A stretch of 62,888 nt of DNA from Weeksellaceae bacterium. GTDB taxonomy: Bacteria > Bacteroidota > Bacteroidia > Flavobacteriales > Weeksellaceae. Positions 3,990 to 61,839 of the stretch are shown here, in pieces. The stretch lies in assembly GCA_030535475.1 (NCBI GenBank), contig JAUNRT010000003.1, forward strand, positions 1 through 62,888, in the 5' to 3' direction. A program made the position numbers and the translations under genes. Each line of letters opens with the position of its first letter. Position 1 is the first letter of the stretch. Below the pieces are notes generated by a model that saw only the letters and a program-made list of their open reading frames with translations, was not told the origin of the DNA and searched no databases.

Positions 3990-4048
3990 AGTTAGGAGAT
4001 TTTTCCGATATGAGTGGCACACGATTTTTAATTGTAAATTACTTTAGT

Positions 4049-4778
4049 GTCAGGCTCTGATAAATTGAGCATAAACAGCAGATAGATGAGATTTTTTTTA
4101 TTTGGGCGGCACCCTTTTCTGGGCAAAATACTTCAGGTTTTATAGAAATCGGCCAAATACCAGGAAACCACCCCAATCTCAAATTTCCATACATGAAATT
4201 GCCCAGAAAAGGGTCGGTGTACGGCTAATACTCCGCGGTCTTTTGGCTACAAAAAATGCTGCAAAATCGGTTTTCCTTAATCTCTCAACCCGCTTTGCAG
4301 CTTTTTTGTAAGAGCCAAAATCCCTTGCGGGGTAACCGCCTACCACCTGCCGCGGCCAACCGCTAAGGCCATTTTGCTTCGCTTGTAACATTTGGATGTT
4401 TTTATTTTGGTCAATTCTAGATGTTTTTTGTGCATCGGCGATTTTGATAGATTTTCTGCCGTTTCTTGGCACAAAAAGCCCTCATTGACCGTGTGTTCCA
4501 AGTGAGCGTTTATGGTATGGCTTGTAGAGACGTTGTCATGTAACGTCTCTACAAGCAGCGTAACGTTTCTAGGTGCATTGAAATGTCTCTAAGTGTTTGC
4601 GGAAAATGGCCTTGTGGGCTGGCCTAGCCCGGATGCGAGCGGCTATCCTTGCAAAATAGACAGCCCTACAGCAATCTGGTGTGGCGGTGGCCGTAACGAT
4701 AGTGGAGGCAGCCGCGACACCGATTGCTGTGGCTGTATATGAGCAAGATAATAGCGGGCAGCCGGAAATAGCTCCTAA
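4049..4778 (-). repeat. Structured two-module repeat element, copy E1 (A end at left, B end at right; inverted relative to E2)
   Basis: About 90 percent identical by eye to the reverse complement of 16492-17262 outside the hairpin apices. A-module is 4101-4355, the central palindrome 4521-4555, and the B-module about 4572-4778. Confidence 0.9.
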
Positions 4779-4793
4779 AAATAGTACTGCTAC

Positions 4794-6495: not shown

Positions 6496-8289
6496 TCAGG
6501 TGAATTGTGCATCTGTTTCTTGCCGTGATATGATGTGGTAGTTTTTCTTACCTGCAGGAGAGTAAACATTGTTTTGTAGGTTGAGAAACTCTTGCAGCAT
6601 ATTGCTTGTCTGATCCGGGCTAAGGTGCTGACCTGAGCGCACGGCCATGGATTTGGCCATAGATTTGGCGAGATGCTCCCGATGGGTGTCATACTCAAAG
6701 TGCATTTCATTGCTCAAATAGTGGCGTACCACATCCGGGAGCATACTGGCAGGCAAGTCTGCAGGTAGTGCGTTGAATTGTATTGTTTGATCTTGGAATT
6801 CTAAGCCAAAACCAAAGGAAATGAGCAATTTTTCGGCGTCTTGCAGGGCAACTTTTTCTTGCATGTTGAGCTCTATGCTGATGGGAAATAGAAGCTGCTG
6901 GCTGAGCACATGGCTCTGATCTTTGGATCTGAAATGATGGTAGAGTAGTGTTTGGTGCATACGATTGCGATGTATGACCATCAGGTTGCCGTGGAAGACG
7001 TGCAACAGGTATTTTTCTGCCCAAGGCAGTGCAGTATGTGAGTGTAAGGGCAGGTCTAGAGCCGGGGCTTGCTCTTCTTGCTCTATATGATGATGTAGAG
7101 TACCGATGTCATATTTGCCGCCAGCGCTTGGGATTTGTGGCTGACTGTGATGTGTGTAGTTATTGCTTGTGTGTGTGCTTTCTACTTCAAAGGGATTGTA
7201 TGTCCTGTCAACGCTGATTTGCGGCGGTGCAATGTTTTGATTCTTGGGTAGGGAAGGGATTTCCCATTGGGGTTGATCAAAATCTATGGCTGGTGTAACG
7301 TGGAACTTATTTAGTGCCATTTTACATGCAGCTCGTAGTTGCGCATAAATAGCTATTTCATCCTCAAATTTTACTTCTGTTTTGGTGGGATGTATGTTGA
7401 TGTCAATTTTTTGCGGGTCTATGGTAAGAAACAGAAAGTATGATGGATGGTGGCTAGGGGAGATGAGGTTTTCGAAGGCGCTTTGCAAAGCTCTATGTAG
7501 GTATCCACTGCGTATGAATCGGTTATTTACAAAAAAGAATTGCTCACCTCTGGATTTTTTGGCGATCTCTGGTTTGCCAATGTAGCCAGTGATGCTTACG
7601 ATGTCTGTTTCTTCTTGTACGCTGATGAGTTTTTCTTCTATTTTGCGACCGAAAAGTTGCACGATGCGCAATGCAGGTGTGGCGGAGTTGAGTTTGTACA
7701 CCTCTGCATCATTATGCACAAGAGACATTTCTATTTTGGGGTGTGCTAGCGCAACACGGTGAAACTCATCTAGGATGTGTCTGAACTCTACACTATTGGA
7801 TTTGAGAAAGTTGCGTCTTGCGGGTATATTGTAGAAGAGGTGTTTCACGGCTATCATGGAGCCGGGTTGTGTGACAGTGGGATCTTGCTTTTTGATTTCG
7901 CTACCATGGATATGTAGCTCGGTTCCAAGGCTGTCTTCCGGTTGTTTGGTTTTGAGCGTGACTTGTGCTACAGCTGCAATGGATGCTAAGGCTTCGCCAC
8001 GGAATCCTTTGCTTGTAAGGTGAAAGAGGTCTTCTGTTTTGCGAATTTTGGAGGTGGCGTGTCTTTCAAAAGCCATGCGAGCATCTGTGACGCTCATGCC
8101 GCGACCATTGTCTATGACTTGGATGAGTGATCTGCCTGCATCTTTTATCACAAGTTGAATATTGTCTGCACCTGCATCTACTGCGTTTTCCAGCAATTCT
8201 TTGACGACGGATGCGGGTCTCTGAACTACTTCTCCGGCAGCGATCTGATTGGCAACATGATCAGGCAATAGCTGAATGATGTCACTCAT
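6496..8289 (-). CDS. mutL: DNA mismatch repair protein MutL
   Basis: MSDIIQLLPDHVANQIAAGEVVQRPASVVKELLENAVDAG is the canonical MutL GHKL ATPase N-terminus. The start is set at the ATG at 8289. Confidence 0.95.
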   Translation of the reverse strand: MSDIIQLLPDHVANQIAAGEVVQRPASVVKELLENAVDAGADNIQLVIKDAGRSLIQVIDNGRGMSVTDARMAFERHATSKIRKTEDLFHLTSKGFRGEALASIAAVAQVTLKTKQPEDSLGTELHIHGSEIKKQDPTVTQPGSMIAVKHLFYNIPARRNFLKSNSVEFRHILDEFHRVALAHPKIEMSLVHNDAEVYKLNSATPALRIVQLFGRKIEEKLISVQEETDIVSITGYIGKPEIAKKSRGEQFFFVNNRFIRSGYLHRALQSAFENLISPSHHPSYFLFLTIDPQKIDINIHPTKTEVKFEDEIAIYAQLRAACKMALNKFHVTPAIDFDQPQWEIPSLPKNQNIAPPQISVDRTYNPFEVESTHTSNNYTHHSQPQIPSAGGKYDIGTLHHHIEQEEQAPALDLPLHSHTALPWAEKYLLHVFHGNLMVIHRNRMHQTLLYHHFRSKDQSHVLSQQLLFPISIELNMQEKVALQDAEKLLISFGFGLEFQDQTIQFNALPADLPASMLPDVVRHYLSNEMHFEYDTHREHLAKSMAKSMAVRSGQHLSPDQTSNMLQEFLNLQNNVYSPAGKKNYHIISRQETDAQFT

Positions 8290-8612: not shown

Positions 8613-8692
8613 ACCTACAAAGTTACGAATTTTTCTCTTTCCACACTTGAGCCTTGCTGCGGGTGATGTATGTGTGGTGTATGTATTTAGGC

Positions 8693-8722
8693 AAAAAAAC
8701 CGGCTATTTCAGCCGGTTTTTT
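8693..8722 (-). terminator. Intrinsic terminator downstream of infB
   Basis: ACCGGCT-atttc-AGCCGGT is flanked by an A run and a T run, so on the minus strand it reads as a hairpin followed by a U run. Confidence 0.75.
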
Positions 8723-8746
8723 ATTTTAATTTGTGTTCAAAATCGA

Positions 8747-16313: not shown

Positions 16314-16491
16314 AAAAAATAAATTTTTCTAAAAATGCAGTGAAAGGTACTGAATTTTAACAGAATCATTTGTGTGACATTCATCATAGGGCTGCAATTG
16401 GTGGCGCAAGGTGGTGCAGGCAATAGAGGTCTTCTTGGTATGACTAGAGAAGTGGTAATTTTTCTTGTGGGGTAATATTTTTTATTTTTTT

Positions 16492-17262
16492 TTAGGAGCT
16501 ATTTCCGGCTGCCCGCTATTATCTTGCGCATATCCAGCCACAGCCATCGGTGTCGCGGCTGCCTCCACTATCGTTGCGGCCACCGCCACACCAGATTGCT
16601 GTAGGGCTGTCTATTTTGCAAGGATAGCCGCTCGCATCCGGGCTAGGCCAGCCCGCAAGGCCAATTTCCGCAAATACTAATAGACATTTCAATGCACCTA
16701 CAAAAGTTGCGCTGCTTGTACAGACGTTGCATTGCAACGTCTCAACCGAATGTACAGAGGTTGCATTGCAACATCTTTACAATCCATGCCATAAACGATC
16801 ACTAAGAACACACGGTAACAGACGGTTTTGTGTGCCAAGAAACGGTAGAAAAACAATTAAAATTGCCTTTGTACAAAAAACATCTAGAATTGACCAAAAT
16901 AGAAAAATCCAAATTTTATAAGCGAAGCAAAACGGCCCTTGCTGCGGGCCGCGGCAGGTGGGAGGCGGTTACCCCGCAAGGGATTTTGGCTCTTACAAAA
17001 AAGCTGCAAAGCGGGTTGAGAGATTATGGAAAACCGATTTTGCAGCATTTTTTGTAGCCAAAAGACCGCGGAGTAATAGCCGTACACCGACCCTTTTCTG
17101 GGCATTTTTATGTGTATTGATAGGAAATACTTGCGGATTTGTTTTCAAAAATCCAAATGACAAAACACTACCGAATTTTGCCCAGAAAAGGGTGCCGCCC
17201 AAATAAGAAAAATAAGAAATCTGATGAACTTGTTGTTTAGACTCATCTTATCAGAGCCTGAC
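16492..17262 (+). repeat. Structured two-module repeat element, copy E2 (B end at left, A end at right)
   Basis: B-module is 16492-16675. Two tandem palindromes lie at 16722-16742 and 16756-16776. A central unit follows, then the A-module at 16949-17203. A further 60 bp or so to 17262 is shared with E1 only. Confidence 0.9.
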
Positions 17263-17376
17263 TCTGCCCAAATTTCCAGTTTTCAATCAAAAAAATTGTG
17301 AATAAGAATTTTTCTTAAAAATTTAAGAAAAAGCTTGTTTGTAAAGGATATTTCTATACTTTTAGCAAAAAAATTT

Positions 17377-21200: not shown

Positions 21201-21280
21201 ACATCACATTTCACAGGCGATGGCGCAAGTTTCAAAAAGATTCATCACAAGGCTTTGAGCAGTTTTTCTGCGAATTTTTA

Positions 21281-21475
21281 TTAGGAGCTATTTCCGGCTG
21301 CCCGCTATTATCTTGCGCATATCCAGCCACAGAAATCGGTGTTGCGGCTGCCTTCACTATCGTTGCGGCCACCGCCACACTGGATTTCTGTACGGCTGTC
21401 TATTTTGCAAGGATAGCCGCTCGCATCCGGGCTAGGCCAGCCCTCAAAGGCCATTTTCCAGCGCAGACATACAGT
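21281..21475 (+). repeat. Solo B-module of the structured repeat family
   Basis: TTAGGAGCTATTTCCGGCTGCCCGCTATTATCTTGCGC...CCGGGCTAGGCCAGCCC is collinear with 16492-16675. The long hairpin carries paired substitutions. Confidence 0.9.
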
Positions 21476-35586: not shown

Positions 35587-35683
35587 CCCCGTATAAACGC
35601 CAGGCTTTTTCATTTGCAGCATTCATATAAATAACAAGATTACATAGAGGAGCCTAGCAAAGTATAATTATTTTTTTATTTTT

Positions 35684-35863
35684 TTAGGAGCTATTTCCGG
35701 CTGTTGCCTCCAATCTTGTTGGTCAGTGGCAGCAAAAAAATCTCCCTTCAGGCACACTCTCCCGGATGAGCCGGGACCCGGTACCTGCAGGGAGTTTTTT
35801 GCATTGCCACTGCCTGCACAAGGATTTCCGGCACATTCGGGCTAGGCCATACAGCACAAGGCC
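35684..35863 (+). repeat. B-module, subtype 2
   Basis: Conserved 5' block. The closing helix is ATCTTGT/ACAAGGAT (35713-35719 / 35818-35825). A roughly 29-bp hairpin spans 35724-35812, and the 3' block is CGGGCTAGGCC..GGCC. Confidence 0.85.
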
Positions 35864-36106
35864 AAAAAATAGTCAGCACCCATTCCCACAGATCAAAAGC
35901 TACAACCAGCATTCACATACAACCAGCAATCACTTTCAAAGGACAATCAAAATCCCAGAAACACGGTCACTGAGGGTTTTTTGTGCCAAAAATCGCGGGA
36001 AAAACAAACAAAAATTGAAACTGCACAAAAAATGTCTCGAAGTGACGAACTTCAAACTTATTCCTTTGCTTCCTGTGGCTTCTCGACAATTTGGCTTAGG
36101 CAAAAT

Positions 36107-36146
36107 CCCTCAGCCACCGTTTTGTATCGGTCACTGAGGGTTTTTT
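36107..36146 (+). terminator. Intrinsic terminator-like hairpin ending tandem unit 1
   Basis: CCCTCAG-20 nt-CTGAGGG followed by TTTTTT. Confidence 0.7.
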
Positions 36147-36267
36147 GTGCCAGAAGTCGCAGTAAAACCAATGAATCGTCAGTGCACAAAAAACGTCTCG
36201 AAGTGACAAACTTCAAAATTATTGCTTCGCTTTATGTGGCTTCGAGACAATTTTGCTTTGGCAAAAT

Positions 36268-36307
36268 CCCTCAGCCACCGTTTTGCATCGGTCACTGAGG
36301 GTTTTTT
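36268..36307 (+). terminator. Intrinsic terminator-like hairpin ending tandem unit 2
   Basis: CCCTCAG (36268-36274) ... CTGAGGG (36295-36301) followed by T6 (36302-36307). Confidence 0.7.
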
Positions 36308-36544
36308 GTGCCAAAAATCACGGGGAAAACAAACAAAAATTGAAACTGCACAAAAAATGTATCGAAGTGACGAACTTCAAAATTATTCCTTTGCTTCACG
36401 TGGCTTCTAGATAATTTGTCTTAGGCAAAATCCTTCAGCCACCTTTTTCCATGTGAAAGCTTTGAAACTTGAATTTTGCAAATCAGCACCGCTGACTTGC
36501 AAAAAAAAGAGCAATATGAAGGTCTATTTGCACTTGTACAGTGT

Positions 36545-36826
36545 TTAATCTAAGTCAAATTCTCTTCCTTCTAGGAATTTCCCCCATTCTTCTGAAATAG
36601 CTTCTATAAAGGACCACGCGTGCCTATCTTCTCCAAATCCTTTGCGTATTATCGGCTGAATGAGCTCCATGGTTTCTTCCTCTGGATTGTATAAATATTC
36701 ATTCCCTTTGAGTAAATGAATGTTTACATAACAACCTCCATCACTGCCATTGAAAGGCTTTGTGTCAATGTATTTAATATTGCCTAAGTCAAAAGCCTGA
36801 TTTCCGAATAAAAAAATTCTTCCCAT
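36545..36826 (-). CDS. Hypothetical small acidic protein (93 aa) carried inside element E3
   Basis: ATG at 36826 (MGRIFLFGNQAFDLG...). No recognisable family. The upstream part of the longer track ORF looks non-coding. Confidence 0.45.
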   Translation of the reverse strand: MGRIFLFGNQAFDLGNIKYIDTKPFNGSDGGCYVNIHLLKGNEYLYNPEEETMELIQPIIRKGFGEDRHAWSFIEAISEEWGKFLEGREFDLD

Positions 36827-37038
36827 GATTATTTGATTTAAAAATTTGATCTTTTTTGTGAACTGTTCTGGTATGCTTCTTATGCAACTTTTTGCATAAC
36901 AAAGTAAACTACGGTGTAAAAGTATTGACGTACAACGCCAAAACATGTCGTTGAAAAAAATTCAAAAGCCAAATAATACTTTTTACGCTATACCGGATGA
37001 AATAATGAGAGTTTTAAGCTAGATCTATGTTGCGATGC

Positions 37039-37283
37039 CCGCGGCAGGTGGTAGGCGGCTACCCCGCAAGGTATTTTGGCTCTTGCAAAATGTGAGCGCA
37101 AAGGGGTTGATGCCGCCCAACCGGCAGAAAACCCTTTGCGCCACTATTTTGCAGCCAAAAAACCGCGGAGTAATAGCCGTACAACCGACCCTTTTAATGG
37201 GTTGTAGAAACGCGATAATCGATGTAAATAATGAATACCCGATCCATTGCGTCTCTACAGCACAAAAAAGGGTGCCGCCCAAA
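37039..37283 (+). repeat. A-module of E3
   Basis: Collinear with 16949-17203. It has the CCGCGG...CCGCGG frame, the CC-GCAA-GG hairpin (37064-37071), and covarying helices at 37074-37091/37146-37160 and 37096-37105/37132-37141. Confidence 0.85.
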
Positions 37284-37318
37284 TCATTAAAAAATATTGC
37301 TTGCCTGTGAACGCTGTT

Positions 37319-49831: not shown

Positions 49832-49859
49832 ACAGTAAATTTTTTTCTTTTTTTTTTTT

Positions 49860-50065
49860 GCTCAGGACCAGGCTATTGGGCTAAATCCTGCTTGCCATAA
49901 TCTACAAAAGCTGCTGCTGCCGGCACACTCTCAGGCTATCGCCGTGACCCGGTACCGGCAGCAGCGCTTTTGTAATAGATTTTGTCTGCGCACGATACCG
50001 CCCATATCCTTGCCTCAACTTGCCTTCGGCAAGTGTTGGGTAGTAATGGAAGCGGGGAAACTTTC
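49860..50065 (+). repeat. Diverged B-like structured module (related to subtype 2)
   Basis: Preceded by a roughly 20-nt T-rich tract. The hairpin at 49899-49980 has the same loop motifs (GGCACACTCTC ... GACCCGGTACC) as 35751-35785, but different, complementary stems. Confidence 0.7.
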
Positions 50066-54487: not shown

Positions 54488-54694
54488 AAGTACATTGAAA
54501 TTTGCCGATGAGGCAAAAATGGCCTTTGTGGGCTGGCCTAGCCCGTATGCGAACGGAAATCCTTGCGCGGCAATCTGCCCTACAAACAGTGGGCTGGCAG
54601 GTACTGGAATCCCTTGTGGTGGACGTACCGGCAAGCCCTCTGTTTGTGGCAGATTGCGAGCAAGATTGCAGTGGGCAGCCGGAAATAGCTCCAA
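54488..54694 (-). repeat. Solo B-module, subtype 3, in the lpxD upstream region and in lpxD orientation
   Basis: The reverse complement begins TTGGAGCTATTTCCGGCTGCCC. It has the AATCTTGC/GCAAGGATT closing helix, a roughly 30-bp hairpin, and then ACGGGCTAGGCCAGCCC...GGCC and ATTTCAATG. Confidence 0.85.
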
Positions 54695-54855
54695 AAAATA
54701 ATAAATAGGCTAATCAAGCATGATAAAGTGTTGATTTTTAAAGGATTGATGAGTTTTGTGGAATTTGAATGTGTTTGGAGAAAAATGGCTTGAAGGAATT
54801 GTAAAATCTGTTTAAATTTGTGTTTTCTAATTTTCAACAAAAAAGTAGGAGTTTT

Positions 54856-56494: not shown

Positions 56495-58066
56495 ATGAAA
56501 AGAAGTTTATTTTGTGCCGGTCTGCTATTAGCAGGTTTGGCCTATGGTCAAGTATTTCAAGAAGACTGGGACGGAAATGGTCCTGGTATTGAGGCTTGGA
56601 CTGTAGTGGATGAGAGTGGCAACACTCCTGATGAAGGGGTGAGCTTTATGACGGATGCTTGGACGGTTGTGGACAGACATGGTGCTCAGAATTTTGGAGG
56701 ACCTGCGGGCGATCATGCTGCAGCAAGTACTTCATGGTTTTCACCTCCTGGACAGGCTGATGCATGGCTGATAAGCCCTGAAATAGAGTTGCCTATAGAA
56801 GAGGCATTCTTGATATGGGATGTTAAGGCTCAGGATGCACAATATCCTGATGGGTATGAGCTACGTTTATCACCAACCGGTGGTAGTGCAGTGGAAGATT
56901 TCACAGTGGTATTGTTTTCAATAGCTTCTGAGCAAGCTACTTGGCAAACGAGATCTATTAGCCTTGGAGAGTATAGCGGAACTACTGTGCGTGTGGCATG
57001 GAGAAACAACTCTACAGACCAGTACATACTTCTTGTAGATAATATCCTAGTGCAAGCGCTGGATATGGAAGCGCCAAGCTGTGTGACTCTTTTAGAGCCT
57101 ACAGATGGGTCAACTGTTGATCCTGCAAATGCAGTATTTTCTTGGGAGCCGGCAGAAGGTGATAGCATAGACAATTATACTTTCTACTTAGGAACAAGTA
57201 TAGATGATATGGCAAGTTTAGGTACTACTACCAACACTTCAACTCCACTGAGTGGCCTACAGTTTAGTACTACTTACTACTGGACAGTGATCCCAAGCAA
57301 TTTGGCAGGTGCACCAACTGATTGTGCTATCTATAGCTTCACAACAGAGGAGTCTCCATTGGCACCTTACTGTGGACCGCTTAATTTCACGCTTGTGGAG
57401 CCAATCACGCTTGTGGAGTTTGCAGGGATAAATAATTCTACTTCTGCAGAGGTAGGAGGGGTTCCGGCTCATGGTATTTATCTGGATATGGTAGCCAATG
57501 TAGCGCAGGGTGAAACGTACACCATTATTCTTTCAGGTAATACTGCCGGAAATTATATAAATAGATTTGCAGTGTTCATTGACTGGAATCAAAATGGTGT
57601 CTTGGATGATGCTGGTGAGGTATATGAAGTAACACAGTTGCTAGAAAACTCAACAGGAACTGATGGTGTCACTATATCTCACGAAATCACTGTGCCAGCA
57701 GATGCTGTAATAGGTACTACTAGAATGCGCGTGAAGAAGATATATGGAACTACTGATTTTCTAGATCCATGCGCAGGTACCACATTTGGACACGCTCAAG
57801 ATTATTCTGTTGAGGTAGGTACAATGTCAACTGTTGATACAGAAATGAGAAGAAACAATGTGTATCCAAACCCTACAAGAGATGTACTCAACATATCTGC
57901 TACAGATGTAGCGCAAGTACGTGTGTACAACATGCTTGGACAGCAGATGAGAGTAGATTTCAATGCTCAAACTGTAAACGTAAGCCACTTACCAGCTGGT
58001 AATTACATACTACAGATGGAGAATGAGAATGGTGACTTGCAAAACGTGAAGTTCATCAAGAAATAA
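56495..58066 (+). CDS. T9SS-sorted secreted protein with choice-of-anchor-J-like N-terminal domain and GEVED-like domain (paralog 1)
   Basis: Signal peptide; the QVFQEDWDGNGPG block; PYCGP...FIDWNQNGVLDDAGEVYEV...RMRVKK...AQDYSVEV; and a C-terminal VYPNPTRDVLNI...KFIKK sorting domain. Confidence 0.85.
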   Translation: MKRSLFCAGLLLAGLAYGQVFQEDWDGNGPGIEAWTVVDESGNTPDEGVSFMTDAWTVVDRHGAQNFGGPAGDHAAASTSWFSPPGQADAWLISPEIELPIEEAFLIWDVKAQDAQYPDGYELRLSPTGGSAVEDFTVVLFSIASEQATWQTRSISLGEYSGTTVRVAWRNNSTDQYILLVDNILVQALDMEAPSCVTLLEPTDGSTVDPANAVFSWEPAEGDSIDNYTFYLGTSIDDMASLGTTTNTSTPLSGLQFSTTYYWTVIPSNLAGAPTDCAIYSFTTEESPLAPYCGPLNFTLVEPITLVEFAGINNSTSAEVGGVPAHGIYLDMVANVAQGETYTIILSGNTAGNYINRFAVFIDWNQNGVLDDAGEVYEVTQLLENSTGTDGVTISHEITVPADAVIGTTRMRVKKIYGTTDFLDPCAGTTFGHAQDYSVEVGTMSTVDTEMRRNNVYPNPTRDVLNISATDVAQVRVYNMLGQQMRVDFNAQTVNVSHLPAGNYILQMENENGDLQNVKFIKK

Positions 58067-58098
58067 GTATAAGTGATCTGATCACTGGGTCTTATGAA

Positions 58099-58130
58099 AT
58101 CCCGCAGCCGCAGGCTGCGGGATTTTTTTT
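58099..58130 (+). terminator. Intrinsic terminator after paralog 1
   Basis: ATCCCGCAGCC-gca-GGCTGCGGGAT followed by T8. Confidence 0.85.
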
Positions 58131-58230
58131 ATGAAACAATTTTTCTCGATGAATTGAGTTTTTGCCTTATGCCCTACGGCATTTTGTGTAACTTTATGGC
58201 CAATTGATATTTTTAACACAAATAGTTTTC

Positions 58231-59805
58231 ATGAAGAGATTTTTATTGTTTTCGGTTTTGATTTTTGCCTCACAGGTTTATGGCCAAATTTTTCAGGAAG
58301 ATTGGGACGGTAGTGGTCCTGGAATTGCCGGATGGACCGTGATAGACGTAGATGCCAATACCCCATCAGCTACAGTAGCCTCATATATGACAGATGCTTG
58401 GGTGGTACTAGATCAGGGAGGTACGCCCAACTTAGATGGCCCTGAAGGAAATTTTGTAGCCGTGAGCACATCAGACTACACACCGGCGGGTACTTCAAAT
58501 GACTGGCTGATATCACCCGTCATAGAGCTCCCCACCGGCAACATTTCTGTGTTCTGGAACGCCAGAGCACAAGATCCCAACTATAGAGATGGATATGAAC
58601 TTAGGTTGGCCCCCAATGCCGGCAATAGTCCGGAGGATTTTACTGTTACATTACTTTCGGTAGCAGAAGAAAGCAGCACTTGGGCCAACAGAAGTGCGTC
58701 ACTCAATGAATATGTAGGAACCAGCGTGAGACTGGCTTGGGTGAACAATTCTACTGACAAGTTTCTTCTACTGATAGACAATATTTTGGTGGATGTAGTA
58801 GAGAATGTAGCTCCGTCATGTTCTGCTCTATTGTCTCCTGCTGATGAAGCTGTAGGAGTGGACCCACAAGGGATTGTGCTCTCTTGGGAAGCTTCTGATT
58901 CAGCTACGAGTTATCAATTGTTTGTGGGCAGCTCACCGAGCACTTTAAACTATATTGATAGCGTAACCAATACCTCTACACCGCTTTTTGGTTTGCAATA
59001 TTCTACAACATATTATTGGTCTATAGTCCCATCCAATGACACGGCCGATGCGCAGGCTTGTGCGGTGTTTTCTTTCACCACCATGGATTCGCCGTTTGCT
59101 CCTTATTGCGGTCCTCTCGTGTATTATTTGACTACAGAACCTATAACTTTAGTAGATTTTGCGGGAATAAATAATGCTACATCAGCAGAAGGTGCTGAGA
59201 GCGCAGGCCATATGGATTTCACAGATCAAGTAGGACATGTGGTGCCGGGTGAAACATACACTATCACCCTACAAGGATATACGGGTGGCAACTATGCCAA
59301 TCGCTTTGTGATCTTCATAGACTGGAACCAGAATGGTGTGCTAGATGATGCTGGCGAGGTATATGAGGTGACACAAGAATTGGTGAACTCTACAGGAACA
59401 GATGGACAGCAAGTAACTCATGAGATTACAGTACCTGCCAACGCATTAATCGGTGAAACACGCATGCGCGTGAAAAAACAATTTGGGCCCAATTATTACA
59501 CAGACCCTTGTATGGCGCCCGGTTTTGGACAAGCCGCAGACTATACACTACAAGTAGGTAGCTTGAGTGTAGGAGAGCAAGAATTAGCCGCTATGAAAAT
59601 CTATCCAAATCCAGTGAAAGATGTTTTGCATATACAAGGAGATGCCTGGGTAGAGGCCAAAATTTATAATTATTTAGGCCAACAAATTCATGCTAAAATT
59701 CAAGGCGGTACAGTACAAGTATCGCACCTGTCACCGGGGAATTATGTACTGCAATTGCAGCAAAGCAATGGTGAAATTCGATCGTTTAAATTCATCAAGA
59801 GATAA
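58231..59805 (+). CDS. T9SS-sorted choice-of-anchor-J/GEVED-like protein (paralog 2)
   Basis: Same architecture as 56495-58066. ATG at 58231 (MKRFLLFSVLIF). Confidence 0.85.
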   Translation: MKRFLLFSVLIFASQVYGQIFQEDWDGSGPGIAGWTVIDVDANTPSATVASYMTDAWVVLDQGGTPNLDGPEGNFVAVSTSDYTPAGTSNDWLISPVIELPTGNISVFWNARAQDPNYRDGYELRLAPNAGNSPEDFTVTLLSVAEESSTWANRSASLNEYVGTSVRLAWVNNSTDKFLLLIDNILVDVVENVAPSCSALLSPADEAVGVDPQGIVLSWEASDSATSYQLFVGSSPSTLNYIDSVTNTSTPLFGLQYSTTYYWSIVPSNDTADAQACAVFSFTTMDSPFAPYCGPLVYYLTTEPITLVDFAGINNATSAEGAESAGHMDFTDQVGHVVPGETYTITLQGYTGGNYANRFVIFIDWNQNGVLDDAGEVYEVTQELVNSTGTDGQQVTHEITVPANALIGETRMRVKKQFGPNYYTDPCMAPGFGQAADYTLQVGSLSVGEQELAAMKIYPNPVKDVLHIQGDAWVEAKIYNYLGQQIHAKIQGGTVQVSHLSPGNYVLQLQQSNGEIRSFKFIKR

Positions 59806-59840
59806 GAATTTCAAGCGCTAAAACAGTATTCGTTTAGAAA

Positions 59841-59872
59841 AATTCCGGGATGTGAAAATTCCGGAATTTTTT
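59841..59872 (+). terminator. Intrinsic terminator after paralog 2
   Basis: AATTCCGG-loop-CCGGAATT followed by a T run. Confidence 0.7.
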
Positions 59873-59978
59873 ATTTCGCAATTCTCAAATGTGCAACATA
59901 AGCCGCTTTTATGGCTCAAAGTTTTTGAAAAATAGCTATTTTTAGCGCTACAACAAATTACTTTAATAAAAAAATAGT

Positions 59979-61562
59979 ATGAAAAGATTTTTATTCTGTT
60001 CGGGTTTGCTGCTTGCATCACTAGCCTATGGACAGGTGTTTCAAGAAGATTGGGACGGAAATGGACCGGGAATAGAAGCTTGGACCGTGATTGATGTAGA
60101 TGGCAACACGCCGGCACCCGTAGTTTCCGTGGTGTCTGACGCTTGGGTGGTAATAGACAGAGGTAATCCAGATTTCTATGTAGGTGGACCAGCGGGCAAC
60201 CATGCCGCAGTGAGCACTTCTTGGTATGCACCACCCGGCACCTCAGATGACTGGTTGATCACCCCACTCATAGAGCTGCCAGAACATGCAGTGCAAGTAA
60301 AATGGGAAGCAAAAGCGCAGGATGGCAACTTCAGAGACGGGTATGAACTCAGATTAGCACCCAATGGTGGCAATACCGTAGAAGATTTCACCGTGCTATT
60401 GACAAGCATAGACGCAGAAAACGTGATTTGGACTACACGCATCATTTCTCTAGAAGAGTATGCCGGTACAAGCGTGCGCATAGCTTGGCGTAACAATTCT
60501 ACCGATGACAACCTGCTGCTAGTAGATAACATAGTGGTGGACACATTACAAGTACAAACCCCACCGGCATGCGTCACATTATTGACCCCGCAAGATGGCG
60601 TAGAAGATATTGCCAGCAATGACACATTAGTGTTCACTTGGCAACCCGCAGAAGGAGAAGAGGTAGATTTTTACACCTTCAGCATTGGCACCACACCAGA
60701 GGCCAACCTATTGTCAGACGCCACCACTGACACTAGCATCAGCATTTCTGGTTTGGCTCCGGGTACAGTATATTACTGGACAGTTACTGCTCACAACGCC
60801 TCTGGTGAGTCTCAAGATTGTGAGGTATTCTCATTCCGCACCATAGGCAGCGACGTGTCGCCATATTGCGGGCCCATATTTTTCCACAACGTAGAGCCCA
60901 TCACTTATGTAGATTTTGCAGGCATCAACAACACCACGTCCGCCTCCATGGATTCATCACCTCATGAGGCATTTCTAGACCAAGTGGCGCAAGTAGTACC
61001 CGGCGAAATGTACACCATTACCTTGGGTGGATTTACAGACGGGCCATATTCCAACAAGTTTGCAGTTTTTATAGACTGGAACCAAAACGGAATCTTGGAT
61101 GATGCCGGAGAAGTGTATGAGGTAGCAGATCTGCTCACTAACTCCACAGGTGAGGATGGAGTGCACATTACCCACACTATTGCAGTACCATTAGATGCAT
61201 TGCCGGGCGAAACGCGCATGCGCATCAAGAAAATCTACCACACACATTCAGGTCTTTTAGACCCGTGTGAGCAATCAGGTTGGGGTCAAGCAGAAGACTA
61301 TACAGTCAACGTGGGAACACTTTCCACTATAGATGTAGCAGCGAATAGCCTCATTGTTTATCCAAATCCGGCCACAGATGTGCTGAATGTCAAAGGATTA
61401 GAGATATCAAAAGCCACAGTATTCAATACCGCCGGGCAGCAAATTGCTGTACAAGCCACACGTGAGCAGGTAGTAGTAAATCACTTGTTGCCAGGAGTTT
61501 ACATCCTTCAAATTACAGATGCAGACGGGAAATTGCACACAGTGAAATTCATCAAGAAATAA
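59979..61562 (+). CDS. T9SS-sorted choice-of-anchor-J/GEVED-like protein (paralog 3)
   Basis: Same architecture. Its N-terminus is nearly identical to paralog 1 (MKRFLFCSGLLLASLAYGQVFQEDWDGNGPGIEAWTV). Confidence 0.85.
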   Translation: MKRFLFCSGLLLASLAYGQVFQEDWDGNGPGIEAWTVIDVDGNTPAPVVSVVSDAWVVIDRGNPDFYVGGPAGNHAAVSTSWYAPPGTSDDWLITPLIELPEHAVQVKWEAKAQDGNFRDGYELRLAPNGGNTVEDFTVLLTSIDAENVIWTTRIISLEEYAGTSVRIAWRNNSTDDNLLLVDNIVVDTLQVQTPPACVTLLTPQDGVEDIASNDTLVFTWQPAEGEEVDFYTFSIGTTPEANLLSDATTDTSISISGLAPGTVYYWTVTAHNASGESQDCEVFSFRTIGSDVSPYCGPIFFHNVEPITYVDFAGINNTTSASMDSSPHEAFLDQVAQVVPGEMYTITLGGFTDGPYSNKFAVFIDWNQNGILDDAGEVYEVADLLTNSTGEDGVHITHTIAVPLDALPGETRMRIKKIYHTHSGLLDPCEQSGWGQAEDYTVNVGTLSTIDVAANSLIVYPNPATDVLNVKGLEISKATVFNTAGQQIAVQATREQVVVNHLLPGVYILQITDADGKLHTVKFIKK

Positions 61563-61598: not shown

Positions 61599-61638
61599 AT
61601 TCTCCCTGTGATCATAGATTGCAGGGAGAATTTTTTTT
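61599..61638 (+). terminator. Intrinsic terminator after paralog 3
   Basis: ATTCTCCCTG-loop-CAGGGAGAAT followed by T8. Confidence 0.8.
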
Positions 61639-61639
61639 A

Positions 61640-61667
61640 TTTGGGCGGCACCCTTTTCCGGGCAATT
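61640..61667 (+). repeat. Isolated A-end stub of the structured repeat family
   Basis: TTTGGGCGGCACCCTTTTCCGGGCAA matches the outer 28 nt of the A-module (4101, 17203rc, 37283rc), but no partner arm follows. Confidence 0.7.
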
Positions 61668-61839
61668 CACGGAATAGCTGTTTTATTGCGGTTTTTGAGA
61701 AGAAAACCGCCAGATTTCCCAAAGTCTCTATAATTTAAATCCGTTACTATTATTGACTAAAATGCTCAAATCATCATCTTTAACGCTTTTTTCCATAACA
61801 AACGGCAGGATCCAATGAGGGTGGAGAGGTGAAAAAATA

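Follow-up and report, generated by a model that had tools for sequence, protein, structure and literature searches.

A repeated structured module in a Weeksellaceae contig belongs to the Flavo-1 family and may be a REP-like intergenic hairpin

Is the structured module that recurs along a contig of a Weeksellaceae bacterium a new RNA family, and what kind of element is it? The first-pass annotation of this DNA (JAUNRT010000003.1, a stretch of 62,888 nt that we call the window), made from the letters alone, had described a six-copy, non-coding module with helices preserved by compensatory changes, and had recognised in it no named RNA family. Our analysis bears out one part of this account and not the other: the multi-copy, structured, non-coding module stands, but the novelty of the family does not. 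The module is, with near certainty, a member of the Flavo-1 family (Rfam RF01705), represented in the window by long-stemmed copies with a small extra GGCC hairpin, and we read the sixth locus as a decayed relative. The family goes back to Weinberg et al. (2010, Genome Biol 11:R31), who listed 239 copies and flagged both their covariation and their variable-length stems. The structure is thus genuine but not new, the element having had an Rfam entry since 2010.

The repetition of the module is evident from an exact 17-mer, GGAGCTATTTCCGGCTG, which is found at five sites of the window (4759-4775 on the minus strand, 16495-16511, 21284-21300 and 35687-35703 on the plus strand, and 54676-54692 on the minus strand), compared with a chance expectation of 0.11 matches (mean over shuffles). 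Repeat finding and a six-way alignment show that a 5' box, a 3' box (CGGGCTAGGCC) and a T-rich tract ahead of them are common to the copies. The limits originally proposed for the module lie close to those of a unit of about 185 nt that is duplicated between unrelated loci (16486-16669 vs 21275-21459, 93.5% identical). The density amounts to five Flavo-1 copies in 63 kb; they are spaced 5-15 kb apart, occur in both orientations, and have housekeeping genes as neighbours (rhomboid, fumC, DUF445/aroA, gpsA, lpxD/yebC). The copy at 4615-4785 opens a larger duplicated block (4046-4781), and a block of 780 nt comes after three of the copies. The GGCC mini-hairpin extends the base of all five window copies, is followed by ATTTT in four of them, and is absent from Flavobacterium copies.

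A search of the region against Rfam, as the first-pass annotation had proposed, gives a negative and a positive answer, depending on the threshold. At the gathering score, which for RF01705 is 42 bits, the scan of the window called tRNA only and no Flavo-1 copy. In E-value mode, all five copies align to RF01705 from position 1 to position 76 of 76, with 35.4, 35.3, 35.3, 32.1 and 25.1 bits, all below 42, and E-values from 8e-4 to 0.56 when the entire window is searched with 4227 families. The conserved nucleotides UAGCCC, GAU, AGCGG, AUCC, GAU, AGCGG and CAGCCGGAAAUAGC are present. The scores fall short of the gathering score because the copies carry an apical insert of 86-98 nt and a few loop substitutions; the shortfall is a matter of the detection cut-off and reflects no biological feature of the family.

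Relatives outside the window lead to the same family. A search for the 17-mer in 185,579 species genomes returned 98 loci, of which about half belong to Flavobacterium or Flavobacteriales, while the remaining ones look like chance matches within coding sequence. At the Flavobacterium loci, the same two boxes surround a much shorter variable hairpin, in the order T-run, GGAGCTATTTCCGGCTGTnCGCTnTATCTTTT, hairpin, AAAAGGATnCCGCTnCCATCCGGGCTAG, and 16 such loci gave 17 matches to RF01705 with 45.7-82.6 bits, on the strand opposite to the orientation of the first-pass annotation. We derived a covariance model of our own, R1, from 33 copies that do not belong to the window; the 16 source loci that were checked in Rfam all score above the gathering score. 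With filters off, R1 recovers the five window copies with 48.7-63.3 bits (E 7.7e-11 to 7.4e-15). The best of the remaining matches (7339-7466, 17.3 bits) lies inside mutL and was rejected as spurious. The full-length alignment to RF01705 and the recovery of the window copies by R1 together identify the module as Flavo-1. Since the first-pass annotation had itself named a hit to a described element as the refutation of novelty, its claim that the family is new is refuted on its own terms.

Table 1. Coordinates of the Flavo-1 copies in the window, of the parts of the copy at 16485-16655, and of the sixth locus. Spans of the five copies are those of the covariance model.
Feature	Position	Strand	Evidence and remarks
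Flavo-1 copy under study	16485..16655	- (Rfam-model strand; first-pass orientation +)	RF01705 full-length match 16498-16648(-), 35.3 bits, E 8.7e-4; R1 63.3 bits, E 7.4e-15
Conserved 5' arm, Rfam orientation, GCCUAGCCCGGAUGCGAGCGGCUAUCCUUGC	16618..16648	-	Alignments to RF01705 consensus and R1
Variable apical hairpin, 90 nt inserted compared with the consensus loop of Rfam	16528..16617	.	RF01705 and R1 alignments; fold -56.1 kcal/mol, z -6.3
Conserved 3' arm, Rfam orientation, GCAAGAUAAUAGCGGGCAGCCGGAAAUAGC	16498..16527	-	17-mer matching, RF01705 and R1 alignments; holds the 17-mer on the plus strand
UCC then A-run (T-rich tract on the plus strand), conserved as CCUAAAAA across copies	16485..16497	-	Seven positions with A at 57-96% in a profile of 51 copies
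GGCC-N9-GGCC mini-hairpin next to the base of the element	16646..16662	.	Lies within the duplicated unit of 185 nt
Flavo-1 copy, apical subtype 1	4615..4785	+	RF01705 35.4 bits; R1 62.2 bits
Flavo-1 copy, apical subtype 1, solitary, between convergent DUF445 and aroA	21274..21444	-	RF01705 35.3 bits; R1 63.2 bits
Flavo-1 copy, apical subtype 2, downstream of gpsA	35677..35854	-	RF01705 25.1 bits; R1 48.7 bits, E 7.7e-11
Flavo-1 copy, apical subtype 3, between divergent lpxD and yebC	54529..54702	+	RF01705 32.1 bits; R1 54.9 bits
Apparent diverged relative, long hairpin behind a T-run	49850..50065	-	Fold -71.8 kcal/mol, z -6.6; local alignment z 11

The window copies share with the Flavo-1 of Rfam the conserved nucleotides UAGCCCGGAUG..AGCGG..AUCC / GAU..AGCGG..CAGCCGGAAAUAGC, the short helices with internal loops, the apical stem of variable length, the multi-copy intergenic spread and the Flavobacteriia hosts. 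They differ in having GAUGCGAGCGG in place of GAUGGAAGCGG and GCGGGCAG in place of GCGGACAG, in the length of the G+C-rich apical insert (86-98 nt), in the extra GGCC mini-hairpin, and in their scores of 25-35 bits. Long-stemmed copies of 131-144 nt also occur in Flavobacterium, and the one that was checked against Rfam (131 nt) reaches 58.6 bits, above the gathering score; a long stem alone is therefore within the known variation of the family. When metagenomes were scanned twice for relatives of this long variant with its GGCC extension, the first scan returned no match, and the second gave two matches outside the family, with 19 and 11 bits. Concerning the host group, the nearest named homologues of the DUF445 protein in the window come from Chryseobacterium, Halpernia and Bergeyella, with identities to named Weeksellaceae of at most 54%. 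A Flavo-1 copy is also present at a Chryseobacterium locus. The window also encodes proteins with a T9SS C-terminal sorting domain. These observations place the host in the Flavobacteriia / Bacteroidota.

The element folds into a rod, in which an AGC/GCU helix with an AAAUA bulge is followed by CCGG/CCGG, UG/CA, GC/GC and (A)AUC/GAU(U) helices and then by the variable stem. The internal loops between the Flavo-1 helices are nearly invariant, and AGCGG is present on both arms. In the copy under study, the arm at 16618-16648 on the minus strand contributes to three short helices, with conserved purine-rich internal loops between them. A closing helix had been claimed to covary between copies, and it does so as quoted: it reads TATCTTGC (16520-16527) / GCAAGGATA (16618-16626) in the 16492 copy (copies are named here by their first-pass start positions); the 35684 copy has AATCTTGT/ACAAGGATT in this place, and the 54488 copy has AATCTTGC/GCAAGGATT. 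Within subtype 1, the substitution pair that had been noticed, CAGCAATC/GATTGCTG vs CAGAAATC/GATTTCTG, is present as well. Above these helices, the apical hairpins of the window copies (86-98 nt) fold with -51 to -62 kcal/mol and z-scores from -5.8 to -8.9, and none of 200 shuffles folds as well.

The collection of copies from related genomes, also proposed at the outset, extends the covariation well beyond the window. In an alignment of 56 copies from the window and the fetched loci, fitted to R1, standard pairs occupy 97.2% of the pair cells, compared with 76.1% in shuffled alignments and 35-46% with slid partners. Both sides have changed at 16 of the 23 pairs. The same helices emerge, with changes on both sides at 14 of 23 pairs, from a plain MAFFT alignment that was not fitted to the structure and was analyzed with RNAalifold. 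The idea that the helices are maintained by compensatory changes thus holds both within the window and across many genomes. Strong covariation alone, however, cannot tell an RNA gene from a REP-like repeat.

The surroundings of the copies bear on duplication and retention. Both in the window and between other genomes, copies that are 93-95% identical, apical hairpin included, lie in unrelated flanks. It follows that duplication acts on the element as a whole, and that the "subtypes" represent copy lineages. Filled and empty versions of the same site were found at three loci. The spacer between DUF445 and aroA, which measures 526 nt in the window and holds the copy at 21274-21444, is 93 nt long and free of Flavo-1 in the syntenic nearest relative, a Logan contig with 73% identity in the DUF445 protein. 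Among six Flavobacterium genomes, five carry a copy between pbp1a and scoA and one has an empty spacer of 23 nt, and the exo2-Gate site is filled in one genome and empty in two. We saw no direct repeats around the copies that would indicate a target-site duplication, and the flanks of filled and empty sites are too diverged to fix the junctions.

The five filled pbp1a-scoA spacers are informative in another respect. Their copies have conserved arms and basal helices with compensatory changes (CCAG/CTGG, UA/UA and GU/AC in one of them, L107), and their apical hairpins are unrelated to each other. Because orthologous copies keep their arms but have had their apical hairpins replaced, the base of Flavo-1 is held by selection or concerted evolution across species, while the tip turns over. 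The apical hairpin is thus free to vary, in agreement with the original description of a long hairpin that differs completely in sequence among the subtypes.

The sixth locus, at 49860-50065, had been listed as a diverged relative, and this claim holds at least for its tip. An apical segment of 58 nt is common to this locus and the copy at 35677-35854 (local score 40 vs 16 +/- 2.2 in shuffles), and the motif GGTACCGGGTCNCGGC is found at 35770 and 49941 only; judging by this alignment, the two apical segments are clearly homologous. The base of the locus matches neither RF01705 nor R1 at E<=10, even when the locus alone is searched against Rfam in E-value mode. Parts of both arms can be aligned by eye. 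We read the locus as a decayed Flavo-1 relative with a base that no longer matches the family; possibly, it is instead an apical module on a different base.

Rfam models the strand opposite to that of the first-pass annotation. Rfam types RF01705 as "Gene; sRNA", and Weinberg et al. (2010) rated Flavo-1 as a probable RNA with covariation. Taken literally, the copies would be stand-alone genes for trans-acting sRNAs, transcribed from the Rfam strand, which we consider quite unlikely. The Rfam strand does fold better (minimum free energy lower in 40 of the 56 copies, mean difference -2.2 kcal/mol, p 3e-5), its internal loops are purine-rich, and its 23 consensus pairs include 26 G-U as opposed to 7 A-C combinations in the 56 copies. 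The wobble asymmetry vanishes, however, once two neighbouring positions of marginal pairing are counted, which have C-A in 27 copies and G-U in 22. Folds of the opposite strand also contain more G-U pairs (120 vs 48). We have dropped the asymmetry as a criterion for the strand, since these counts make it indecisive, and it does not discriminate between RNA and DNA either. Conserved signals of a transcription unit are missing: the Bacteroidetes -7 motif TAnnTTTG lies upstream of 2 of 51 copies in the Rfam orientation and of 4 of 51 in the other, and a scan for sigma-70 promoters and terminators around the 16492 copy called nothing at the element. The tail after the hairpin in the Rfam orientation, conserved in a profile of 51 copies, is an A-run without any U-run. 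Nor would one regulator be expected in dozens to hundreds of copies whose apical sequences are unrelated. In F. psychrophilum, Flavo-1 matches are sense or antisense to transcribed regions, and many are untranscribed (PMC9723704), so that neither strand nor transcription is consistent. Flavo-1 is probably not a gene of its own.

Gene context favours the first-pass strand as the sense strand. Where the element lies between co-directional genes, this strand is sense 13 to 2; the neighbouring genes are convergent in 16 cases, co-directional in 15 and divergent in 10. The left neighbour, in the first-pass orientation, is co-directional and ends just upstream in 35 of 54 copies, and copies often land 0-35 nt from a stop codon. 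These observations speak for a cis-acting mRNA element on the first-pass strand, which would protect the transcript against 3' exonucleases or serve as a processing site, as REP does in E. coli. The two additional loci (pbp1a-scoA and exo2-Gate) have the same arrangement, and the arms are conserved at orthologous sites. Nevertheless, 19 of the 54 copies face a gene start instead, and some occupy divergent promoter regions, such as the one between lpxD and yebC. We regard a cis role of this kind as unlikely to be the right description, even though it overlaps the explanation that we prefer below and does not exclude it.

An intrinsic terminator could be suspected, as the stable hairpin often directly follows a gene and ATTTT comes after the GGCC hairpin in four of the five window copies. 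An intrinsic terminator is a G+C-rich hairpin followed by a U-run; in Flavo-1, the T-run precedes the hairpin on the first-pass strand, and in the Rfam orientation an A-run follows it. As the terminator scan made no call at the element and some copies sit 11-13 nt upstream of the next co-directional start codon, we consider termination very unlikely. The chance that a small protein is encoded is practically nil. One frame on the first-pass strand is open through every window copy and resembles a lipoprotein signal (...FFLGAISGCPLLSC...), and the other strand gives a Cys-rich peptide (GWPSPDASGYPC...). However, element lengths of 69-151 nt across 41 copies are not multiples of three, several copies have no start codon in the open frame, stops interrupt other frames, and the apical part is swapped for unrelated sequence at orthologous sites with pairing kept. 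Lengths, missing starts and apical replacement effectively refute both coding readings and uphold the original judgement that the module is non-coding.

A purely selfish origin has to be weighed, too. Flavo-1 might be a non-autonomous mobile element (MITE- or PATE-like, or a REPIN), mobilized by a transposase encoded elsewhere and without function for the host. The filled and empty sites at three loci, the near-identical copies in unrelated flanks and the high density would all be expected of such an element. Terminal inverted repeats beyond the hairpin and target-site duplications were not seen, though, and among the 29 window ORFs scanned there was no Y1, HUH or other recombinase or transposase domain. 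Moreover, decay would be expected in the absence of selection, whereas the arms of orthologous copies are nearly invariant and have compensatory changes in spite of diverged neighbouring spacers. We give a purely selfish element a low probability.

Overall, the explanation towards which we lean is that the module is a Flavo-1 member and, at the same time, a REP-like hairpin that occurs intergenically in high copy number. The mechanism behind this reading is more tentative, and we hold it with rather less than even confidence: an intergenic hairpin near gene ends that folds when single-stranded and has a core recognized by a protein. In such a model, the whole unit, apical hairpin included, would be copied into A/T-rich spacers. 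It would fold as one long imperfect hairpin, either in RNA that reads through from neighbouring genes or in single-stranded DNA. A putative conserved flavobacterial protein would recognize the basal arms and the internal loops (GAA/GGA, GGC/AUA, and AGCGG on both arms). The apical stem would need only to pair and could turn over freely, while selection or concerted evolution would maintain the basal structure at orthologous sites. Effects on neighbouring mRNAs are conceivable in this setting, and the 13-to-2 orientation bias could alternatively reflect a strand-specific cis role in mRNA. A point against the REP-like reading is that copies have long been kept, under purifying selection, at orthologous sites, which suits a host function as well as, or better than, a selfish repeat. 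A search of the literature turned up neither a function assigned to Flavo-1 nor a flavobacterial REP. Gene context, orthologous sites and filled and empty sites suggest viewing Flavo-1 as a dispersed hairpin repeat with a putative protein-recognized core, which is a modest reframing of the family.

Comparison with established repeats makes clear how far the likeness goes. The REP, BIME and REPIN sequences of Proteobacteria, associated with RAYT transposases, share several traits with Flavo-1: they are imperfect palindromes that occur outside genes in high copy number, often immediately downstream of one; compensatory changes maintain their structure; a genome can contain several subfamilies; and copies persist at orthologous sites. 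A REP is 20-40 nt long, begins with a 5' GTAG, usually occurs in inverted pairs and has a cognate RAYT gene. Flavo-1 elements, by contrast, are 70-170 nt long (69-151 nt in the 41 copies measured), solitary, without GTAG, and endowed with conserved internal loops and an A/T-run, and they lack a known partner protein. Correia (NEMIS) elements of Neisseria and ERIC resemble Flavo-1 as dispersed intergenic repeats of about 100-160 nt that, once co-transcribed, fold as long hairpins and can influence the processing and stability of mRNA. They are distinguished by terminal inverted repeats and TA target duplications, and do not have the conserved internal-loop core and hypervariable tip of Flavo-1.

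Integron attC sites are built like Flavo-1 in that their basal stem is conserved and includes unpaired or extrahelical positions, while their terminal structure is variable, and they, too, are often located right after an ORF. They are recognized by a protein in folded single-stranded DNA, and they lie in cassette arrays beside an integrase and have an R/L box consensus. The Flavo-1 copies of the window, in contrast, are dispersed between housekeeping genes, in either orientation and outside any cassette array, and no integron integrase was found in the window. It is conceivable, but on the whole doubtful, that Flavo-1 is not an sRNA but a flavobacterial counterpart of the REP/attC type, with a protein-recognized scaffold under purifying selection and an exchangeable, hypervariable apical "cargo" stem. 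The 58-nt module common to the 35684 copy and the sixth locus would then be a separately transferable unit moved by a putative enzyme.

For annotation practice, the consequence is that routine Rfam searches at the gathering score overlook long-stemmed Flavo-1 copies such as those of the window (25-35 bits vs 42). As a separate observation, Flavo-1 ranks among the most abundant "sRNA" families in Rfam.

No close sequenced relative of the host organism was found in the collections searched; its DUF445 protein has its best match, at 73% identity, in a single Logan contig, and the remaining matches listed (Chryseobacterium, Halpernia and Bergeyella) are at most 54% identical. Despite the distance of the host's relatives, the 17-mer that is exactly shared by the five copies of the hairpin repeat Flavo-1 (Rfam RF01705) in the window is identical to the 17-mer of Flavobacterium species. 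In the single Chryseobacterium Flavo-1 copy examined, it differs from the window's at several positions.

At three window loci (16489-17265, 4046-4781, inverted, and 35957-37295), a larger non-coding repeated block starts with a Flavo-1 copy. The block at 16489-17265 is 82% identical to the inverted one (4781-4046) across 783 nt, and its sub-modules 16805-16897, 16949-17097 and 17180-17212 recur in the same order beyond the Flavo-1 copy at 35677-35854. There is no Rfam match to the block and no Pfam match for the ORFs within it. The tandem units of 160-164 nt (Table) are related to 16805-16897 and to 4399-4494, and every one of them contains a GGTCACTGAGGGTTTTTTGTGCC-like motif. We also observed that the 91-nt repeat connects the block that follows the Flavo-1 copy at 16485-16655 with the spacer found downstream of the T9SS gene array. 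The three paralogues of this array each have a Cleaved_Adhesin, a GEVED and a T9SS C-terminal sorting domain, and they account for the direct-repeat family D2 (spacing 1736-1748 nt).

Repeats, hairpin and tandem genes in the window
Feature	Position	Remarks
Perfect hairpin AAAAAACCGGCTGAAATAGCCGGTTTTTTT	8691-8725	directly downstream of infB; A- and T-runs on its flanks
Two direct repeats, GTACAGA(C/G)GTTGCATTGCAAC(G/A)TCT	16718-16779	
91-nt repeat, inverted	17123-17213 and 61630-61720	75% complementary
Tandem repeat, three copies of a 160-164 nt unit	35964-36448	68-93% identity between units
Three paralogous genes in tandem	56495-61562	523, 533 and 527 aa

Both direct repeats contain a near-perfect palindrome centred on TTGCATTGCAA (16723-16741 and 16757-16775) and could be a protein-binding site; they give rise to a weak Rfam match to mir-33. 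The hairpin 3' of infB, which looks like a bidirectional terminator, is likewise the cause of weak Rfam matches to OrzO-P, AgrB and Trp_leader.

Outside the window, some Flavobacterium copies have a GTCATCCTGAGC..AGCGAAGGA-type motif in the Flavo-1 tip, the variable apical hairpin between the conserved arms (L105, 2860-2900; L015, apical hairpin). It resembles a short hairpin repeat often found in Bacteroidota, and if this resemblance is right, the tip may be a nesting place for other small palindromes. In one orthologous copy (L023, 2120-2150), the conserved 3' box CCATCCGGGCTA is broken up and reads CCCTCCCGAAGTTTCGGGATGGGCTA, which looks like a small hairpin inserted in the conserved arm.
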